From Escherichia phage J8-65, in sequence record NC_025445.1: a DNA stretch of 40,981 bases. One strand, 5' to 3'. Position 1 is the stretch's first letter. Each line of letters starts with the position of its first letter. This document shows positions 687 through 19,604 of this stretch, piece after piece. The translations under genes were made by a program, and so were the position numbers. The notes under the pieces are model-generated. The model had not been told where the DNA came from. It searched no databases and saw nothing but the letters and a program-made list of their open reading frames with translations.

Positions 687-715
687 TTGCAATGTTGTTT
701 GTGATTTGCTGTAAT
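687..715 (+). promoter_or_regulatory. sigma70-like early promoter (TTGCAA-N17-TGTAAT)
   Basis: -35 TTGCAA 687-692, 17-nt spacer, -10 TGTAAT 710-715, in AT-rich block upstream of first genes. Confidence 0.5.
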
Positions 716-792: not shown

Positions 793-821
793 TTGACAAG
801 GCAAGCTCACTATGCTGTAAT
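793..821 (+). promoter_or_regulatory. sigma70-like early promoter (TTGACA-N17-TGTAAT)
   Basis: consensus -35 TTGACA 793-798, 17-nt spacer, -10 TGTAAT 816-821. Confidence 0.6.
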
Positions 822-928
822 GCTTCCAGTCAGTCAGCAAGCTAAACAGTCATGGATAAAGACGTTAAAACCCACGTAGGCGAACTGATACGGTTTAATC
901 ATCTCAGAATGGGCGCTGATTAAAACGG

Positions 929-957
929 TTGACAGGATGAAACGAGTATGCTGTAAT
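929..957 (+). promoter_or_regulatory. sigma70-like early promoter (TTGACA-N17-TGTAAT)
   Basis: -35 TTGACA 929-934, 17-nt spacer, -10 TGTAAT 952-957; same architecture as 793-821. Confidence 0.6.
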
Positions 958-1007
958 GCACACCAGATTGACAGGCAGCAAGCCAGTCAGTCAGAAGTAA
1001 AAAGTAG

Positions 1008-1036
1008 TTGACAAGCTGAATACGATGTGATGTAAT
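1008..1036 (+). promoter_or_regulatory. sigma70-like early promoter (TTGACA-N17-TGTAAT)
   Basis: -35 TTGACA 1008-1013, 17-nt spacer, -10 TGTAAT 1031-1036. Confidence 0.6.
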
Positions 1037-1467
1037 CAGCACCGAGTTGAAAGGTTGCAAAACAACCTGCTCTGAGTGAACGTAAACTGGCCACGTAGTG
1101 TCACGGCCTCATGGGTATCCGGCGCAGCTAGGAACTGGTGAGGGCACCGCCGAAAGGCAATAGGGGTAGCGCCCGGTGCAAGGGAACGGAGAAGCGCGAT
1201 AGACGCAGCGCAGTATCAGCACAATCCCGAACGTCTTATAAGGCGCGGAGTGTAGCGGGTAGGTAGGCAAGCTGGTAACGGTGAGCCGGACTGCTGGAGG
1301 ACTCCTGAGAGTGGATGCAGACAATATCCACGGCGCGAAATGGGCGGGGCGATTTTTCAGGGTAGTGAATCCGACAAGCCAATCAATGCCAACGAGTGCA
1401 GACTGTACGGCGCGTCACAATGGGTTCACTATCCACCTGAAAATAGCCAACAACTGGAGAAATCAAT

Positions 1468-1857
1468 ATGTACCGTATCTATGCAAGCGCATATCGTCAG
1501 GGCAACGCTGAGTCAGTCAATCTGGCACTGCACTGCAAGGCACTGCGAACGGTGCAGGACATGTTCGGAGTGATTCCGGTCACACTGACAGGCAAGTTCG
1601 ACAATGCGTATGAGTTACGCATGGTCTTCCCTGTCGATGGAATCTACGAAATCCGGCAGGCTGTTAAGCTGTTTTGTAAAGCCTTCGAACAGGACTGCAT
1701 CATGGTAGTGACCAAAGACGACGATGCAATCTTCATGGACTCACCGTATCCGGGCAAGCCTGCTGGCAAGCTGGTCAGCAAGACTAACGAGGAAATGGAA
1801 GCCGGGCAGTTCACTGCTTGGACTTACGACGGTGAGCAATTTTGGGTAGTGGAGTAA
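1468..1857 (+). CDS. hypothetical early protein (129 aa)
   Basis: ATG start, GGAG upstream, first ORF after promoter cluster. Confidence 0.6.
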   Translation: MYRIYASAYRQGNAESVNLALHCKALRTVQDMFGVIPVTLTGKFDNAYELRMVFPVDGIYEIRQAVKLFCKAFEQDCIMVVTKDDDAIFMDSPYPGKPAGKLVSKTNEEMEAGQFTAWTYDGEQFWVVE

Positions 1858-5392: not shown

Positions 5393-5631
5393 CCATCATC
5401 AAAGACGAAAGCAAACTCGAAGTCGGTTCCGCATACAAGCTGAGCGGCGGTGTGTTCTGTTCGGTTGCACTGGACGTGAACGCAGGCAAGTTCATCTTCA
5501 AAGGGCGTGACGAATACAACCCGGACATGCTGCACTTCGAAGGTGTTACCGATGGCCGGGCGCAGTTCTTGTACCCGGAGCGGCTGGCCGATGGGCAGTA
5601 TGATTTGTCCAAGGTTGAAACAATCAAGTGA
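5389..5631 (+). CDS. hypothetical protein (80 aa)
   Basis: ATG start, GGGAG upstream. Confidence 0.55.
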   Translation: MTIIKDESKLEVGSAYKLSGGVFCSVALDVNAGKFIFKGRDEYNPDMLHFEGVTDGRAQFLYPERLADGQYDLSKVETIK

Positions 5632-5663
5632 CTTACTCGTGGCATTTCGTGAGAGATGCCACC

Positions 5664-5903
5664 ATGAAAGTAACTGTATTGCACAACATCGGAGGAGATA
5701 TGCTCAAAGTAATATTGTTGTTCCTGCTTCTGGTAATTATTTGGGGAGCGTTATGGGTGGGTCTTGCATCACTGGTGCTTATCCCTGCGGTCGGTGAGTC
5801 AGCCACTTCAACACTGGGCACACTGCTCGGCATGTTGGTGGGCTGGGGTCTGATGCAGTTGAGCCTGAGTGTAGGCCAGAATCGGGGGTGGATTAAATGG
5901 TGA
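5664..5903 (+). CDS. small membrane protein with two predicted TM helices (79 aa)
   Basis: ATG 5664; VILLFLLLVIIWGALWVGLASLVLIPAV and LGTLLGMLVGWGLMQLSLSV hydrophobic segments. Confidence 0.55.
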   Translation: MKVTVLHNIGGDMLKVILLFLLLVIIWGALWVGLASLVLIPAVGESATSTLGTLLGMLVGWGLMQLSLSVGQNRGWIKW

Positions 5904-7056: not shown

Positions 7057-8322
7057 GTGTTAGACAAACTGTTGCTCTCTGTCATGCGTGAGCGAGGGAA
7101 GTATAACTCCCTGCGCCATGCCATTCCAGAGGACACTATGAGTCAGACCACAGGCTACATGCTGCGTGCGTATGGCTCATACTTCGAGGCGTTCCCGGAT
7201 TCAGATTACGTGGATATGGAAACGCTAGGCACACACGTCCGGCTCAAGACTGGGAGTACACCGGAGCAGATGGCTGCGTTCGAATCGCTATGCCAGCAGC
7301 TCAAGGAATACCAGCCGACGAAGCAGCAGACCGAAGGCATCATCGACCAGTTAGTCGAGCTGGATACAGCAGGCAAGGTTAACCTCCTTGCGCAGAGGTA
7401 CGACAATGGCGATGAGATTGATTTCATCTATGAGCTGGGCCGCCTTGCAGAAGGCGCACGCCGCAGTCGAGGGCAGTCATCTGTCACTGATTACGTTGAC
7501 GATGATGTGGTTGATATTATCAATCGGACGGATGATGACCACGGTTTCAAGTTCGGTCTCATGTGTTTGCAGGACAGCGTTAGGGTACTTCTCCCCGGTG
7601 ACTCCGTTGCAATCGGCGCTCGACCCGACAGTGGCAAGACTTCCTTCATCGCGTTTAACCTTACGAGAATGGCGGCGACAGCAGCGAAGCTGTATCCGGG
7701 CCGACCAATCCTATGGTTCAACAACGAAGGGCAGGGCATCAACATCATCCCGCGCATCTACCAAGCGGCGCTCGGCTGTACGCTCCCGGAGTTAAAGGCA
7801 CTGGGTGCAGACAGGAAGAAGTTGCATGAGAAGTACGCGAAGGCGTTGAATGCTCCGGCCAACATCATACGTGTGAAGGACATGCACGGTGCAACGTTGG
7901 CCAAAGCGGAGCAGGTGATTGAAGCAATGAATCCCTGCATCGTGGTGTGGGATATGCTGGCAAACTTCAAGTTGTCTGTGGCTGACGCTAACAGCAACAA
8001 GGCCAGCCAAGTCGAGCAGCTCTGGCAGGAGGTACGTGAGCTGGCGGTACGTCATGACTTCGTATCGCTGGCTACGGTTCAGGTATCCGCAGACGGTGCC
8101 GACGATATGTTCCCCGCGCTAGACGCACTCAAGGATTCCAAGACTGGTATCCAAGGTGCGACCGATGTGATTGTCATGCTGGGTTCCGTTGACGACCCGG
8201 CGCTGGCAGCGAGGCGCGGCGTGAGCACTCCGAAGAACAAGCGGCAGATAGCTGGGCGTCCGTCCAACGTCCGTTCGCAGGTTCACTTCTATGCTGATAA
8301 ATGTCAATTCGAGGATATGTGA
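7057..8322 (+). CDS. DnaB-like replicative DNA helicase (421 aa)
   Basis: GTG start 5 nt after AGGAGG; Walker A GARPDSGKTS; position matches T7 gp4 helicase domain. Confidence 0.75.
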   Translation: MLDKLLLSVMRERGKYNSLRHAIPEDTMSQTTGYMLRAYGSYFEAFPDSDYVDMETLGTHVRLKTGSTPEQMAAFESLCQQLKEYQPTKQQTEGIIDQLVELDTAGKVNLLAQRYDNGDEIDFIYELGRLAEGARRSRGQSSVTDYVDDDVVDIINRTDDDHGFKFGLMCLQDSVRVLLPGDSVAIGARPDSGKTSFIAFNLTRMAATAAKLYPGRPILWFNNEGQGINIIPRIYQAALGCTLPELKALGADRKKLHEKYAKALNAPANIIRVKDMHGATLAKAEQVIEAMNPCIVVWDMLANFKLSVADANSNKASQVEQLWQEVRELAVRHDFVSLATVQVSADGADDMFPALDALKDSKTGIQGATDVIVMLGSVDDPALAARRGVSTPKNKRQIAGRPSNVRSQVHFYADKCQFEDM

Positions 8323-8675
8323 TGAGCAAGATAAAGGTAGGCGACCGCGTTCGTAACTGTGACACCAAGAGCGTACACTTCGGCGCGACTGGTACTGTGG
8401 TGGATATCGACAGCAAGTGCATCAGCATCCGGCGCGACGATGGCTCGCGTGGTTCCGGTATCTATGGTTCGTGGACTGCGCGGCCAGAGTGCTGGGAGCT
8501 ACTGGATGAAGTAGCCAAGGTGCCGGAGCCGACGAGCACTGACGAAGACTGGAGCTATGCAGAAGCTGAGCGTCTGTATCAGGCGGCGTGTGATGCCATG
8601 TCGCGGTACAATCAGTACATCGAGCGTAAGCCTACGACTAACTACCTGTCCGGCTCAGTGCCGAGCAAGTGGTGA
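8322..8675 (+). CDS. hypothetical protein (118 aa)
   Basis: ATG 8322 with GAGGA RBS, 1-nt overlap with helicase stop. Confidence 0.55.
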   Translation: MSKIKVGDRVRNCDTKSVHFGATGTVVDIDSKCISIRRDDGSRGSGIYGSWTARPECWELLDEVAKVPEPTSTDEDWSYAEAERLYQAACDAMSRYNQYIERKPTTNYLSGSVPSKW

Positions 8676-8987: not shown

Positions 8988-9660
8988 TAACGACTTCAAG
9001 CGCGTGTGGGCAGAGGAAATCTGTCGGCTGTTGCAGGGCGAAGAGTTGAGCTTCGTTGTTGCAGGGGGTGGGGCACGAGACACTGCGCTTGGCGTAGACC
9101 CGAAGGACTTTGATATCGTGGTGTTCGGTTGGGGCGGTGACATGCAGCGCGTTGCTCGCCGACTGGACTGGCTGGATTCCCGGCTGGAAGACTGGGCTGC
9201 GGAGCATGAGCTAGACTACGAGTACATGCCGAGTTACCACGATGCAGAAGAGGGCGGCGACTTTGGCTCCCGACTGTACGGCGTGTACAAAGTTGGCCCG
9301 GTCGATATCATCATCAGCAAGTGCGGCTGCTGGTCACAGGTGCTGAACGAGTTCGACTTCAACCTGAACCAGTTCTACTTCCCGTCCAGTATCCCGCGCT
9401 ACTCCGGCCAGTACAGCCGTGACCCCGGCGACTTCATGGCGTACCCGTATGAGCCGAAGCTGACTGCCGAGGATGTGCAGTGGTATCCGGCGCTGGCCAG
9501 TCTGGTTGAAAGCTATGACGACCTTCTGACCCTGCGTGTGTGCCGACCGGATGCGAGCATGAGTCGTCTGGCTTACATGTTAGAGAAGCACGAGAAGCTG
9601 CTGCCCCGCATTCAGGAGTACGTGAATCGTATGCCTGACCATTTGGGTGGCACAGCATAG
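8977..9660 (+). CDS. class II CCA-adding-enzyme-like nucleotidyltransferase, short form (227 aa)
   Basis: GTG start after GGGGAG; VVAGGGARDTALGVDPKDFDIVVFG matches the GGxxRD...DxD head-domain signature of CCA-adding/poly(A) polymerase family; downstream DFNLN motif. Confidence 0.6.
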   Translation: MISDNDFKRVWAEEICRLLQGEELSFVVAGGGARDTALGVDPKDFDIVVFGWGGDMQRVARRLDWLDSRLEDWAAEHELDYEYMPSYHDAEEGGDFGSRLYGVYKVGPVDIIISKCGCWSQVLNEFDFNLNQFYFPSSIPRYSGQYSRDPGDFMAYPYEPKLTAEDVQWYPALASLVESYDDLLTLRVCRPDASMSRLAYMLEKHEKLLPRIQEYVNRMPDHLGGTA

Positions 9661-9670
9661 CGGAGGGGTA

Positions 9671-12136
9671 ATGGCAATTCGAGCACAGGTCATTGACGTT
9701 GAGACCGAGAACCATGACTGGTACGGTGAGCTGGCATCTCCACGCTGCCCGGACAACTACGTCGTGATGCAAGGCCAGCGCGATTGTGTGCTGACGAAGA
9801 ATGGCTGGGAGTTCTACGAGCGCGAAGAGTATCGGTACACGTCAAGGGAAGACTGGTTGCAGAACAAGAGTCTGCACCTGCACCCCGACACGAACATACT
9901 GGTGGCACACAACGCGCCGTACGAATTGAGCTGGTGGTTCCTGCATTACGGTGACGAGTTCACTGCCTTCCTCAAACGGGGTGGCCGTGTATTCTGTACC
10001 GCATATGCAGAGTACCTGCTGACTCACCAGCAATCGCAGTACCCATCGTTAAACGAAACCGCGCCGAAGTACGGCGGTACTCACAAGGTGGATGCAGTCA
10101 AGGCAATGTGGGAGTCAGGTTATCTGACCAGCCAGATTGACCCGGAGCTGCTAAGTGAGTACCTGTCCGGGCCGAGCGGCGATATCGAGAACACCACGAA
10201 GGTGTTCGTCGGGCAGTGGGCTGAGCTTACCAAACAAGGTATGCTACCGATGGCACTGACCCGTATGGAAGGGATGCTGATGTGGGCGTACATGATGCAC
10301 AGCGGCTTGCACGTTGACCGTGAAGTGGCTGAGCGGAATCGTCAGGAGTTACGCACGCAGATTGACGAGCTGACACAGAAGCTGCTGGATTATCTACCAG
10401 CGGATATGCCGGAGGAAGCACGTAACCAGTTCAAGTTCACGTCGGCATACCACATGTCAGCGTTCGTCTTCGGCGGCGTCATGAAGTATACGACCCGCGT
10501 ACCACGTACTGATGCAGACGGCAATCCAATCTACGTGAAGGTGGATGCGCCGCTGTTCAAGCGTGGCAAGGAGAAGTGGTTGAAGCACAAGGAAGAGTGC
10601 GAGTTCGATGAAGAGTCCGGGCTATGGTATGACCCGGTTGAGAAGGTACACCAAACTCTGTACACGGCAGGCAAGTTCAAGGGCGAGCCTAAGTTCGAGA
10701 AGCTGGCGACAGATGAGGTGGACACCAAGTGGGGCGATGTGCTGTACCCGCTGCCCGGTCTGCTCCGCGACAAGGACAGACGAGCGAAGGAGATAGCAGA
10801 CAACCTCGTATGGGAAGACCCGAAGCGTCCGGGTGAATATCTCCGGCGCACTGGTGACTGGGTGGGCAAGCGTAAGCTGGCTGATGGTACACCTGTGTTC
10901 AGTACGGCGGGTGAGGTGCTGGAGATTCTGGCTGCCCGTAAGATTCCCGGTGTGGTTGAAATCGCTGAACGTGCCAAGTCACAGAAAGACCTCGGCACCT
11001 ACTACTTGAGTGAGACCTTCGACGAAGAGGGTAACGTCACTGGCCAGTCAGGTATGATGCAGTTCATCCAGCCGGATGGGATTGTACATCACACCATTAA
11101 CATGACTGCGACGGAGACCACTCGCTTATCATCGGCACGACCGAATAGCCAGAACCTTCCGCGTAAAGGTACGAGTAAAGTTAAGCAGATGTTCACCTCC
11201 CGGTTTGGGCCGGGCGGCAGGATAGTCGAGGCTGACTACTCGGCGCTGGAAGTAGTAGGGCTGGCGGGATTCAGTAAGGATAAGAATCTCGTTAAGGCTC
11301 TGATGGATAACATCGACATGCACTGTATGCGTCTGGCCGCGCAGCTTGAGGAAGACTACGAAGAGGTGAAGCGTAAGGCGAAGGATGAATCCCATCCTGA
11401 CCACGAACGCTACAGCCAGATGCGTACCGATATCAAGCCGAAGGCATTCTCATATCAGTACGGTGCGACAGCGCGAGGCATCGCGTACTCCACTGGCTGT
11501 ACTGAGGAAGAGGCACAGGCATTCATCGACAACGAGAAGAGTCTGTTTCCAGAAGTGGAAGCATGGTTCGACAAGGTTATCTTCCCGGCAGTGGAGAAGT
11601 CCGGTCAGAGCAATGTGTTCAAGGAGCAGGATGAGAATGGACGGTGGTGCGTCTACCGCCGTGGCTACTTCAAATCTCCGGGCGGCACCTGCTATTCATT
11701 CCGTCAGTATGAGAAATGGAACAGCGCAGCTCGTGGGTATTTGATGGAATACAAGCCAACCCAAATGCGTAACTATCCGATTCAAGGTGAGACCGCGTTT
11801 TGGGTGCAGGGCATTGGTGGTCTGTTGTTCCGCTGGCTGCTGAGCAATGACTTCTTTGGTGGGCGTGTGGTTCCCATCAACCAAGTGCATGACGCATTCT
11901 ATTTCGACGTTGCGCCTGACTGTCCACACGAGTTCTTCGTAGGACTCAAGGCAATCATGGAGAGCATCCCGGAATACTATAACCACGTATGGCCTGAGTA
12001 TGACCTGACGGTGCCGTTCCCGGCAGAGGTGGAAGCAGGCCCAAGCATGTACGAGAAGCACCACGTAGAGACGACAGCCGAAGAAGTGCTGGAGTTCAAA
12101 CGTAACTTTCTGAAATCTAAGGGTATCGAGATATGA
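9671..12136 (+). CDS. family A DNA polymerase, T7 gp5-like (821 aa)
   Basis: ATG 9671 after GGAGGGG; exo motif VIDVETE; motif A DYSALEVVG; motif B RTDIKPKAFSYQYGAT; motif C VHDAF. Confidence 0.9.
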   Translation: MAIRAQVIDVETENHDWYGELASPRCPDNYVVMQGQRDCVLTKNGWEFYEREEYRYTSREDWLQNKSLHLHPDTNILVAHNAPYELSWWFLHYGDEFTAFLKRGGRVFCTAYAEYLLTHQQSQYPSLNETAPKYGGTHKVDAVKAMWESGYLTSQIDPELLSEYLSGPSGDIENTTKVFVGQWAELTKQGMLPMALTRMEGMLMWAYMMHSGLHVDREVAERNRQELRTQIDELTQKLLDYLPADMPEEARNQFKFTSAYHMSAFVFGGVMKYTTRVPRTDADGNPIYVKVDAPLFKRGKEKWLKHKEECEFDEESGLWYDPVEKVHQTLYTAGKFKGEPKFEKLATDEVDTKWGDVLYPLPGLLRDKDRRAKEIADNLVWEDPKRPGEYLRRTGDWVGKRKLADGTPVFSTAGEVLEILAARKIPGVVEIAERAKSQKDLGTYYLSETFDEEGNVTGQSGMMQFIQPDGIVHHTINMTATETTRLSSARPNSQNLPRKGTSKVKQMFTSRFGPGGRIVEADYSALEVVGLAGFSKDKNLVKALMDNIDMHCMRLAAQLEEDYEEVKRKAKDESHPDHERYSQMRTDIKPKAFSYQYGATARGIAYSTGCTEEEAQAFIDNEKSLFPEVEAWFDKVIFPAVEKSGQSNVFKEQDENGRWCVYRRGYFKSPGGTCYSFRQYEKWNSAARGYLMEYKPTQMRNYPIQGETAFWVQGIGGLLFRWLLSNDFFGGRVVPINQVHDAFYFDVAPDCPHEFFVGLKAIMESIPEYYNHVWPEYDLTVPFPAEVEAGPSMYEKHHVETTAEEVLEFKRNFLKSKGIEI

Positions 12137-17165: not shown

Positions 17166-17174
17166 GGGGATGTG

Positions 17175-19604
17175 ATGGATTTGCTGGCAGAACAGATTCG
17201 ACTGGAAGAAGAGGCGCGTGCCCGTCACCGGGCAGGCTGGTTAGATAACGTACGAGATGCGATAGACTCAGGCCGCGCCTCGGCGGTGCCACTGTTGCAG
17301 CGAGCGATGGTTGAGGCATACCCCACTGTCGAAGCTGCAATGCTGGATATCCTGAACGAAACTACTCGTGGGTTCGGTGCGCAGTACCGCACGTATCTTC
17401 GTGAAGTTGGGGCCAAGACCTGTGCGTCTCTGGCCCTGAGCATGGCGGTGTCCGGCGCGACCGGGCGTACCGCCGTGACTCAACTGCTCCGCGAGATGGG
17501 GCAGGCAATGATGGCTGAGGTAGTCTATGCGAGAGCTGAGAAGGCTGGCAAGCGCGAGGCTGCGTACATGGAGAAGGTTCGCCGTGACGTGAACAAGTCC
17601 AAGTCCAAGTCGCCGAACCACATCTACAACAAGGCACGCGCTGCCTCAGCCAACGTTGGTGTCGAAACTGAAATCCTGCCACAGCGTGCGCTCATCACAA
17701 TCGGCAAGTTGATGATGCGTGCTGTCGAACCGACTGGTCTGGTCAAGACTGTCCGAGTCGGCGGTAGCTTGAAGAACCGGGCGACGGCGCACTTCGCTCT
17801 GCATGACGATGTGCTCATCATGCTTGAGGATTGGATGAAGCTGCCACACCTCGGCATCAACTGTTACCCACCGCTGATTGTGCCGCCAGCTCAAATCAAT
17901 GCGAATGGCTTCGGCGGTATGTGGCACTCTCCGGGGCAGGCAGCGACGTATGTGGCAATCAGCAAGCTCAAGCACCCGGCGTACCGTAAGTTAGGTATTG
18001 ACCCACTGCCAGTGATTGAGCCGTGCATGATGCTGTCGAGCGTTCCGTTCCGCGTGAACAAGATGGTGCTGGAGTTCCTGCAAGCCAACCGAACCGGGGT
18101 GATGGGGTTGCCTGTTGCGCCAGTAGAACCGAAGCTGCCGTTCACTATCCCGGAGGGCGTAACGTTCAGCCAGTACATCAGCAAGTTCCCGGCTGAGATG
18201 CAGCAGCGTATGGATGCTGAGGCACACGAGTTCAAGGTCAAGACTCGCATCTACCACAATGACATGAAGAAGTTCACCACGCAGATTCAGGCACTGAGCA
18301 GTGCGCTGCGCGAGGCTGAGCAGTACAAAGTGTACGAGCGAATCTACCTGCCGACGTACGCCGACACCCGTGGCCGTTGCTACTATGCCTCAGCCCTGAA
18401 CCCGCAAGGCATTGACGCAATTCGTGCTTTGCTTGAACTGGCCGACCCGGTGCCGTTGGGTAAGGAGGGTCTGTTCTGGTTGAAGGTTCATGTGGCCAAC
18501 TGCTTCGGCTATGACGCTACAGACTTTGAAGACAGGGCAGCGTGGACTGATAAGACAATGCCGCGACTGCGCGAGGCTTGCCGTCTGCCGGAGGCATACG
18601 ACTCGTTCTGGTCTGAGGCTGACAGCCCACTGTGTGCATGGGCGGCTGCGGTAGAGCTGGTGCGTGCGCTGGATAGCGGGAACCCGGAAGAGTATCCGTG
18701 CCGCGTGGTGACGCAATGGGATGCAACATGCTCAGGTCTGCAACATCTCTCCGCAATGCTGCGCGACGAGGTGGGTGGTGCTGCGGTCAACCTGATTGAT
18801 TCCGTAGGACGTAAGGCAGACATCTACGTTAAGACCGCTACAGCGGCTCTGGAGGCGTTAAAGGAAGCAGAGGCAACCAACCCTACGGTCTTGGGTTCGT
18901 GGCTCGTACAGACGGGCATAGAGCGCGGCATGGCCAAGAAGCCTGTGATGACTTATGTGTACGGTGCGACACGCCACGGCATGGTGGATTACTATGCTCT
19001 GTATTTGCGAGAGCACAACACTCCGCTGCCGGAAGGGTACACCCTGTTCCAGTGTGCAATGTACATCGCCGGGTTCATGTGGGATGCAATTCCTCGCGTG
19101 GTGCCGAAGGCTGCTGAGCTGATGGCGTGGCTGCAAGCTATCGCATCGGAGGCAGCGGCTAACGGGGAGTACGTGGAGTTCACTGCTCCGTCTGGTCTGC
19201 GCATGGTGAACATGTATCAGGCTCACAAAGAAACCACTATGGGTATCAAGCTGATGGGTGTTCATGCCATCAAGCTGCGCGAGTACATCGACAAGCCAGA
19301 CGGTCGCAAATGTGCGGCTGCGATTGCTCCGAATTTTGTACACGCGATGGATGCCAGCCACATGATGAAAGTTCTGTGGGAGATGTGGAATAACGGGATT
19401 TACATGGTGTCTATCCATGATTCATTCGGTGTTGCAGCGGCTCATGCAGGTCTACTGCACAAAGTCATCCGTGAAAAGTTCGTGCAGATGTACGAGGAAC
19501 ATGACCCGATTCAACAACTTGCTGTGAGATATTCTAAGGAAGCTCCGGCGCGGGGTCAGTTGGATATCAACGAGGTCAAGAAATCCTCCAAATTCTTCTG
19601 CTAA
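17175..19604 (+). CDS. single-subunit DNA-directed RNA polymerase, T7-like (809 aa)
   Basis: ATG 17175 after AAGGGGA; WDATCSGLQHLSAM, KKPVMTYVYGAT and SIHDSFG match T7 RNAP motifs A, B, C. Confidence 0.92.
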   Translation: MDLLAEQIRLEEEARARHRAGWLDNVRDAIDSGRASAVPLLQRAMVEAYPTVEAAMLDILNETTRGFGAQYRTYLREVGAKTCASLALSMAVSGATGRTAVTQLLREMGQAMMAEVVYARAEKAGKREAAYMEKVRRDVNKSKSKSPNHIYNKARAASANVGVETEILPQRALITIGKLMMRAVEPTGLVKTVRVGGSLKNRATAHFALHDDVLIMLEDWMKLPHLGINCYPPLIVPPAQINANGFGGMWHSPGQAATYVAISKLKHPAYRKLGIDPLPVIEPCMMLSSVPFRVNKMVLEFLQANRTGVMGLPVAPVEPKLPFTIPEGVTFSQYISKFPAEMQQRMDAEAHEFKVKTRIYHNDMKKFTTQIQALSSALREAEQYKVYERIYLPTYADTRGRCYYASALNPQGIDAIRALLELADPVPLGKEGLFWLKVHVANCFGYDATDFEDRAAWTDKTMPRLREACRLPEAYDSFWSEADSPLCAWAAAVELVRALDSGNPEEYPCRVVTQWDATCSGLQHLSAMLRDEVGGAAVNLIDSVGRKADIYVKTATAALEALKEAEATNPTVLGSWLVQTGIERGMAKKPVMTYVYGATRHGMVDYYALYLREHNTPLPEGYTLFQCAMYIAGFMWDAIPRVVPKAAELMAWLQAIASEAAANGEYVEFTAPSGLRMVNMYQAHKETTMGIKLMGVHAIKLREYIDKPDGRKCAAAIAPNFVHAMDASHMMKVLWEMWNNGIYMVSIHDSFGVAAAHAGLLHKVIREKFVQMYEEHDPIQQLAVRYSKEAPARGQLDINEVKKSSKFFC

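Follow-up and report, generated by a model that had tools for sequence, protein, structure and literature searches.

Genomic context of the leader

The window analysed here is the whole stretch of 40,981 nt recorded for Escherichia phage J8-65 (NC_025445.1). It is the complete genome of a T7-like phage and is identical with the IMG/VR contig IMGVR_UViG_2706795724_000001. In GenBank it is closest to phages of the genus Bonnellvirus, among them LF82-23, mellemsur and altidsur, whose classification is Autographivirales; Autoscriptoviridae; Stentvirinae. The left end of the genome and the polymerase genes are organised as follows.

687-715, plus strand: fourth, weaker promoter-like site TTGCAA-N17-TGTAAT, with 2 mismatches to the pattern of the next entry
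793-1036, plus strand: cluster of three sigma70-type consensus promoters, with perfect TTGACA-N17-TGTAAT at 793-821, 929-957 and 1008-1036
1037-1467, plus strand: untranslated leader of 431 nt, a structured RNA
1444-1467, plus strand: A-rich conserved tail of the leader with the Shine-Dalgarno sequence GGAG (1456-1459); AACUGGAGA is invariant in both genera
1468-1857, plus strand: first gene, S-adenosylmethionine (SAM) lyase of the T3 'SAMase' family (PF23780, E=5e-26; phrog_2226; GenBank annotations of relatives)
9647-12136: DNA polymerase gene
17172-19604: phage RNA polymerase gene (PF00940)

A first-pass annotation, made from the sequence alone, had placed the end of the last promoter -10 at 1036 and the first credible start codon at 1468, and had described the interval as an unusually long (~430 nt) untranslated leader. 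The first boundary is confirmed by the perfect promoter at 1008-1036 and the second by the Shine-Dalgarno sequence together with the PF23780 match, while the resulting gap of 431 nt is indeed more than twice the ~175-190 nt found between promoter A3 and gene 0.3 in T7 and T3. Transcription of the leader is predicted to start near 1042-1044.

The extended -10 TG is present in each of the three consensus promoters, which were overlooked by a generic promoter scanner because of the G at position 2 of the -10 hexamer. The annotated promoters of Pantoea phage LIMEzero have a TGTAAT -10 as well. When up to 2 mismatches to TTGACA-N17-TGTAAT are allowed, the genome contains 7 matches against 2.3 expected, a number reached in none of 100 shuffles, and the pattern scan found no further perfect promoter in the genome beyond these three. 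All three lie upstream of the leader, and every early transcript therefore carries the leader RNA. The phage RNA polymerase gene is located 16-18 kb downstream of these sole consensus host promoters, in a phiKMV-like gene order. Given this position and the lack of any other consensus host promoter, it is therefore probably the host polymerase that transcribes these 16-18 kb.

Two further elements were observed within the early region. A 41-bp intergenic element (1943-1983) includes a hairpin, TAGCGTCC-UACG-GGGCGCTA (1951-1970). J8-65 has one copy, and about 170 Klebsiella phage records carry the element in up to 5 places per record, with 92.7-97.6% identity among the matches listed. In J8-65 and in Klebsiella phage Putnam alike it lies just upstream of an early gene (in J8-65 the phrog_1448 gene), and it may represent a mobile hairpin, exchanged among phage groups, with a role in processing or stabilisation. 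The second element is a terminator-like hairpin (2937-2959; CAGGCCATTCGATGAGTGGCCTG then AATTGTTATT) inside the early operon between two small ORFs, which may act as an attenuator or stabiliser.

Composition and lack of coding capacity

The interval had been called GC-rich in the first-pass annotation, a description that does not hold, as its 55.5% GC is practically that of the genome (55.7%). The leader is instead rich in G and poor in U (G 137, C 102, A 121, T 71), and C exceeds G in only 10% of its 78-nt windows (35% over the whole genome). GUAG is over-represented as a tetramer, with 6 occurrences against 2.0 expected. According to a hand count, GUAG is likewise recurrent in the Waewaevirus-like leaders; it stands in loops and internal loops (GUAGYG loop, GGUAGG, CGUAGU).

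The same annotation saw no convincing ORF in this interval, and the comparison with relatives agrees. The ORFs 1281-1511 and 1340-1573 do exist, so that a small protein produced from either one deserves consideration. Neither ORF is conserved, however: the frame starting at ATG-1340 is broken by stops, a frameshift or loss of the start in 8 of 16 relatives, and no ORF common to the family runs across the leader in these 16. Neither ORF has a Pfam match, and the indels that separate the leaders of relatives are mostly not multiples of three. The interval 1037-1467 is non-coding, and a small protein encoded here can be dismissed with near certainty.

A conserved multi-domain fold

The comparative model predicts the following elements.

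1052-1068, plus strand: hairpin H1, 6 bp, loop CAAAA; 100% paired, the pair 1055-1065 alternating between U-A and A-U
1080-1103, plus strand: H-type pseudoknot, with stems S1 (1080-1083/1093-1096) and S2 (1088-1091/1100-1103); one compensatory pair per stem
1107-1143, plus strand: H3, a long irregular hairpin of 15 bp; 6 compensatory pairs, 100% paired, in agreement with the minimum free energy (MFE) fold
1144-1179, plus strand: P4 three-way junction, with P4a capped by a GAAA tetraloop (1152-1155) and P4b by a conserved GUAGYG loop (1166-1171)
1182-1228, plus strand: P5 core domain, made of P5 (1182-1185/1225-1228), P5b and hairpin P5a (1194-1211) with loop GAUAGACNCA; supported by covariation
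1232-1346, plus strand: long-range helix P6 (1232-1236/1342-1346), enclosing the P7 arm; supported by covariation and by an MFE z of -4.02
Within P6, plus strand: P7 arm, made of P7 (1243-1246/1333-1336), a GNRA-capped hairpin (1271-1282) and P7c (1311-1331)
1354-1443, plus strand: P8, a 90-nt hairpin with 25 conserved bp and a variable tip; candidate RNase III site

Local self-complementarity had already been pointed out at about 1052-1066. This segment, ggttgcaaaacaacc, corresponds to hairpin H1, in which relatives show the compensatory change from U-A to A-U. The predicted pseudoknot has moderate support, as each of its compensatory pairs (U-A/C-G and U-A/A-U) shows two states only, with zero unpaired cells. 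In the P4 junction, into which some relatives have inserted a fourth hairpin, P4 and P4a alternate between C-G and U-A, and P4b shows G-C, G-U and A-U. P5 shows GC, CG and UA at two positions, P5b alternates between A-U and C-G and P5a between G-C and C-G. The internal loop between GAA (1191-1193) and AGUA (1212-1215) appears to follow the loop-E/bulged-G pattern. The tetraloop of the inner hairpin in the P7 arm is GUAA, GCAA, GAAA or GUGA, and so always GNRA; in four relatives, the P7 arm has been swapped for an unrelated sequence folding to the same shape. P8 carries two conserved bulges on its 3' side, CCA (1433-1435) and ACAAU (1417-1421). The Shine-Dalgarno sequence is unpaired in the conserved fold.

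Two additional pairings were considered and rejected. A closing helix proposed by RNAalifold (1045-1049/1451-1455) shows no covariation and has no counterpart in the Waewaevirus-like leaders, and was omitted from the model. CGUCU (1232-1236) could alternatively pair with AGACG of the P5a loop and so act as a switch, but this pairing is not kept in LIMEzero or in the IMG/VR contig L032.

Evidence for structure conservation

The first-pass annotation had suggested that the leader could encode a structured RNA, an RNase processing site or a small regulatory RNA. The first of these was followed up by folding and covariance analysis across related phages, and a large conserved fold with many compensatory changes was found, nearly the whole interval forming a single multi-domain structure, on a larger scale than the annotation had foreseen. 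Neither of the two outcomes that it named as refuting, a conserved protein-coding ORF or a lack of conserved structure, was obtained. The alignment of the leaders consists of invariant blocks, inserted hairpins and visible compensatory changes, and RNAalifold returned 124 pairs, 14 of them with double changes. An all-against-all search for column covariation produced many spurious pairs and was uninformative because of the few lineages and mosaic blocks in the data; helix-level tests were used in its place.

These tests rely on alignments that are partly hand-anchored or spliced, and their slid controls are flattered by the fact that the tested structures were derived from the same sequences. 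Read in this way, the 5' domain (1037-1150; alignment A2) shows 29 pairs with 100% of cells paired and 9 compensatory pairs, against 0-1 in the slid controls, and none of its stem columns has changed on one side only. The core without the P7 arm was tested on two alignments. With the 14 sequences of A3, 28 pairs are 96.1% paired and 9 are compensatory (slid controls 0-2); with the 16 sequences of A5, 23 pairs are 96.7% paired and 9 are compensatory (27 cells; slid controls 0-3). The unpaired cells of A5 all come from four type-B sequences in which P7 is shifted in register by one base; A3 adds three P4 cells where LIMEzero is misaligned. For P8 (alignment A6), 25 pairs account for 200 cells, 100% of which are paired, and 5 pairs are compensatory (slid controls 0-2). 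This covariation rests on few independent lineages. The sequences are mosaics of blocks, each helix shows two to four states, and many of the compensatory 'events' counted here were therefore inherited together.

Thermodynamic folding points in the same direction. Single-sequence MFE folds of the sub-domains reproduce the comparative helices of H3, the P6/P7 arm and P8. The MFE z on the plus and minus strands is respectively -2.35 and +0.35 for H3, -4.02 and +0.87 for the P6/P7 arm, and -3.22 and -1.80 for P8. P8 therefore also folds well on the minus strand, and the stability is strand-specific for H3 and the P6/P7 arm. Taken whole, the leader has a z of -1.81 on the plus strand and +1.41 on the minus strand. 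Compensated helices and strand specificity, the properties generally expected of a structured non-coding RNA, are thus both found. In addition, the core covariance model recovered contig L036, which was outside its training set, at 91.8 bits, and the 5' domains of the Waewaevirus-like phages, which have another sequence, are still structured, with 7 compensatory pairs in 4 sequences.

Taken together, the comparative data show that positions 1037-1467 specify a non-coding, multi-domain structured RNA on the plus strand, with about 104 predicted base pairs, which is the obligatory leader of the early operon in Stentvirinae phages.

Distribution and evolution

BLAST detected the leader in 20 phage records with 74-98.6% identity, in phages of Escherichia, Enterobacter, Kosakonia, Cronobacter and Pantoea, and a part of it in Pantoea phage LIMEzero, of the genus Waewaevirus. 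Three more Waewaevirus-like contigs containing the leader were found in IMG/VR (L030, L032 and L036) and one more Bonnellvirus-like contig (L026) in metagenomes; a metagenome scan using a 19-mer of P8 returned one true relative and three chance matches. A gapped P8 pattern, run against the genomes of 100,044 species, gave 21 matches, all without the hairpin context and therefore due to chance. No similarity to the leader was found in E. coli genomes and plasmids. The core covariance model matched neither the Eracentumvirus phages that have a SAM-lyase homologue (Era103, Nifs112) nor T7, T3 or the left end of a Klebsiella Drulisvirus.

The relatives of this RNA are thus confined to Stentvirinae, that is, to Bonnellvirus and Waewaevirus-like phages. 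Stentvirinae has two named genera, Bonnellvirus and Waewaevirus, which makes the leader a feature at the level of the subfamily. The RNA is present in every relative found, with hosts ranging from Escherichia to Pantoea. Its modules assort independently among phages, which indicates recombination.

The neighbouring gene evolves differently. Between Bonnellvirus and Waewaevirus the SAM lyase is only 26.5% identical, whereas stretches of 54-111 nt around P8 are 74-85% identical. In L036, moreover, the Shine-Dalgarno sequence of the leader RNA is followed by a different ORF of 45 codons (5568-5705) before the SAM-lyase gene is reached, so that the gene immediately downstream of the leader need not be the SAM lyase. 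On both grounds, the core is probably not gene-specific.

Two observations concern individual records. The ends of the Cronobacter phage RZ4 record (LC778449; L012 and L014) overlap by about 121 nt inside the leader, an assembly redundancy by which naive joining of the ends would duplicate part of the leader RNA. In the Waewaevirus-like phages (L013, 659-1006; L032, ~8233-8577; L030 and L036), a conserved ORF of about 115 codons (MHPITLKAAFDAYA...), which has no annotation in the LIMEzero record, is placed after the first promoters and before the last promoter plus leader RNA. In these phages the leader RNA is therefore not ahead of the very first gene.

Comparison with known RNA families

The Rfam scan proposed in the first-pass annotation was run with Rfam 15. 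No family matched the whole window at the gathering score or positions 700-1700 at E<=10, and none matched the three Waewaevirus-like loci at E<=5. The leader RNA is a real, well-supported new structured-RNA family that is unrepresented in Rfam 15.

Several specific identities were considered and rejected. ARAGORN found 0 tRNA or tmRNA genes. The motifs GUAGCGCC, GUAGUGU and AGGAACUG suggested a mimic of 5S rRNA, but the local alignment with E. coli 5S was not significant (score 16; mean of shuffled sequences 17.2). A CsrA sponge would be expected to be enriched in GGA motifs, of which a hand count found about 9-10 against about 12 expected.

GOLLD and ROOL, two large RNAs, occur in phages. 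Together with OLE and raiA, they resemble the leader RNA by their size, many helices, GNRA loops and pseudoknot. There is nevertheless no homology, and the J8-65 RNA is a fixed operon leader instead of a free-standing gene.

A further likeness is with antitermination RNAs, namely HK022 putL/putR, the Bacillus EAR element (which contains a pseudoknot) and lambda nut/rrn boxA. These too are structured RNAs, found close downstream of promoters from which the host polymerase transcribes a long operon, and the J8-65 leader has the corresponding placement, after the last of the operon promoters and before the first gene. It is, however, three to five times larger, with a probable processing site directly downstream. 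Among antitermination signatures, no Rfam match and no two-hairpin put architecture were found, and the boxA-like motif lies outside the leader (771-788).

Parallels in general character come from two surveys. ONT-cappable-seq yielded candidate ncRNAs derived from 5'UTRs in virulent phages (10.1101/2023.10.13.562163), and a catalogue of 10,006 viral candidate structured RNAs ('csRNAs') has been assembled (PMC10690425), among which the present leader might already figure. As in J8-65, the candidates of both studies are conserved, structured and abundant-looking 5' UTR RNAs of lytic phages, with conservation at the genus or subfamily level. They are mostly shorter than 250 nt and terminator-ended, whereas the J8-65 leader is far larger, lacks a terminator and has explicit covariation support.

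An elaborated T7-type early leader

The organisation of the locus closely recalls the early leader of T7 and T3. In each case, host promoters are clustered at the left end of an Autographivirales genome and an untranslated leader comes next, with a long hairpin whose end lies about 25 nt ahead of the first gene. This is an anti-restriction gene and, in T3, a SAM lyase as well. P8 ends 24 nt before the AUG, and the annotated R0.3 of T3 ends 25 nt before its own; T7 has the same RNase III site, R0.3. With its 25 conserved bp and bulges, P8 fits what is expected of an R0.3-type hairpin, an extended stem of about 20 bp or more with an internal loop or bulges, placed between leader and first gene and terminating about 25 nt before the start codon. 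Its position makes processing by RNase III plausible by analogy.

The differences are equally clear. P8 is about twice as long as R0.3 of T7/T3, with conserved bulges, and has no sequence similarity or structural homology to it. No second P8-like motif or hairpin was found in the genome, whereas several R sites would be expected of the R0.3 type. The J8-65 leader also contains about 300 nt of extra, covariation-supported structure of tertiary type without counterpart in T7/T3. Finally, J8-65 has its boxA-like motif upstream of the strong promoters, and T7/T3 have theirs downstream of A3. The J8-65 leader is, by this comparison, a greatly elaborated version of the T7-type early leader.

The boxA-like sequences themselves, which we take to correspond to rrn boxA, are TGTTCTTTAACAATCTGG in J8-65 (771-788), after the weak promoter-like site at 687-715, CGCTCTTTAACAATCTGG downstream of A3 in T7/T3, and CGCTCTTTATACAATCTGG in LIMEzero. 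It was also observed that the A3 leaders of T7 (~380-405) and T3 (~422-448) can form an H-type pseudoknot just after the start site, CAGUG..UCACC.CACUG.AAA.GGUGA in T7 and with stem 2 GGCGG/CCGCU in T3. Between the two sequences compared, 4 of 5 positions of stem 2 differ while complementarity is kept.

Possible functions of the leader RNA

The reading that we favour, although we put it somewhat below an even chance, is that of a leader processed by RNase III whose folded core would engage conserved host machinery on the early transcripts. Its first step would be a cut in P8 by host RNase III, at the place of R0.3 in T7/T3, and the chances of this step appear evenly balanced. The cut would free a stable folded RNA of about 380 nt, longer for transcripts from the upstream promoters, and would leave the SAM-lyase mRNA with a short, open 5' UTR.

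In the second step, which is more tentative than the first, the core P4-P7 would serve as a cis-acting front end engaging conserved host machinery, and not as a gene-specific switch. The invariant unpaired nucleotides and tertiary motifs of the core argue for a specific partner. The core is also universal and slow to evolve, which points to a conserved host machine and away from a defence system that varies. The first candidate target would be the transcribing host RNA polymerase, which could be rendered processive and resistant to termination and to Rho, in parallel with boxA/nut, HK022 put or EAR. Processive host transcription is a plausible need because about 16-18 kb separate the promoters from the phage RNA polymerase gene. 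The presence of a boxA-like motif upstream of the strong promoters, together with a G-rich leader that has few C>G windows, supports an action in cis as well. Known antiterminator RNAs, however, are 70-120 nt long, and a put-type element must stay tethered to the polymerase, a tethering that is strained here because the cut in P8 would sever the RNA from it.

Such a severed RNA could act in trans. Once released by RNase III, it might be a decoy, a sponge or an inhibitor of a host factor or of an anti-phage system, an alternative that is rather unlikely but still the strongest of the rivals. An RNA of this kind would be the fastest possible counter-measure, as translation is not needed, and it would belong to the transcript that is made first and, with three consensus promoters behind it, probably in large amounts; its neighbour is an anti-restriction gene. 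The conserved unpaired nucleotides, the signatures of tertiary motifs (GNRA loops, the loop-E-like loop, the pseudoknot) and the mosaic, swappable peripheral arms would suit it too, and the 5'UTR-derived candidates of other virulent phages (10.1101/2023.10.13.562163) offer a parallel. On the other hand, the RNA is universal and fixed in position within the subfamily and its core is conserved beyond the neighbouring protein, which is the behaviour of a housekeeping element instead of an arms-race accessory, and no similarity links it to host RNAs, to plasmids or to known decoys.

Alternatively, the leader may have no specific partner and be a passive scaffold, which shields the untranslated leader from Rho and RNases, keeps the ribosome-binding site open and ends with an RNase III site. 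Its G-rich composition with few C>G windows, its stable folds and the unpaired Shine-Dalgarno sequence are in keeping with this role, as is the T7 precedent of cleavage at R0.3, which, according to work of Dunn and Studier in the 1970s, reportedly improves translation of gene 0.3. We nevertheless regard a mere shield as distinctly unlikely. It would not need loops and junctions that are invariant in two genera (GAUAGAC, GUAnCAG, GUAGYG, ACAAU) or the maintenance of GNRA tetraloops, and leaders less than half as long suffice in T7/T3.

A riboswitch, in which the core would be an aptamer for SAM or another metabolite controlling SAM-lyase expression, is improbable. The size and complexity of the core fit an aptamer, and in nearly all members it lies directly upstream of a metabolite-degrading enzyme. 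The Rfam searches described above nonetheless returned no aptamer (E<=10 in the window, E<=5 in the three Waewaevirus-like loci), and the leader contains neither an intrinsic terminator on the plus strand nor a conserved helix sequestering the Shine-Dalgarno sequence; an anti-SD-like CUCC (1302-1305) is absent from type-B arms. The different ORF that follows the leader in L036 also speaks against it.

Least credible among the RNA-based functions is a replication primer similar to ColE1 RNA II, for which a G-rich transcript with a GGGCGGGGCG run at 1342-1351 would form an R-loop and prime DNA synthesis near the left end, where T7 has a secondary origin; the proposal is an analogy alone, the G-run is not conserved in the Waewaevirus-like leaders, no origin-like AT-rich region follows it, and we consider it highly improbable.

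Significance

Textbook accounts of early phage gene expression are built on T7-like phages, yet, to our knowledge, their early leaders have not been reported to contain any large structured RNA. The present leader has a fold of about 100 bp that is more conserved than the adjacent protein gene and is carried by every early transcript. In a broader and more speculative proposal, less probable than the favoured reading, the first RNA made by the phage would represent a new class of large, tertiary-folded RNA (~300-400 nt) acting directly on conserved host machinery. It would either ride with or reprogram the host RNA polymerase, so that this enzyme could transcribe about 18 kb of phage DNA and draw it in by doing so, or act in trans as a takeover or anti-defence factor independent of translation. 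Carrier phages such as mellemsur, altidsur and glasur infect E. coli K-12 MG1655, which makes the system experimentally tractable. At minimum, the leader constitutes a well-supported new RNA family suitable for Rfam; if it does modify the host polymerase or another core machine, it would stand for a novel, RNA-based way of taking over the host or of coupling genome entry to transcription.
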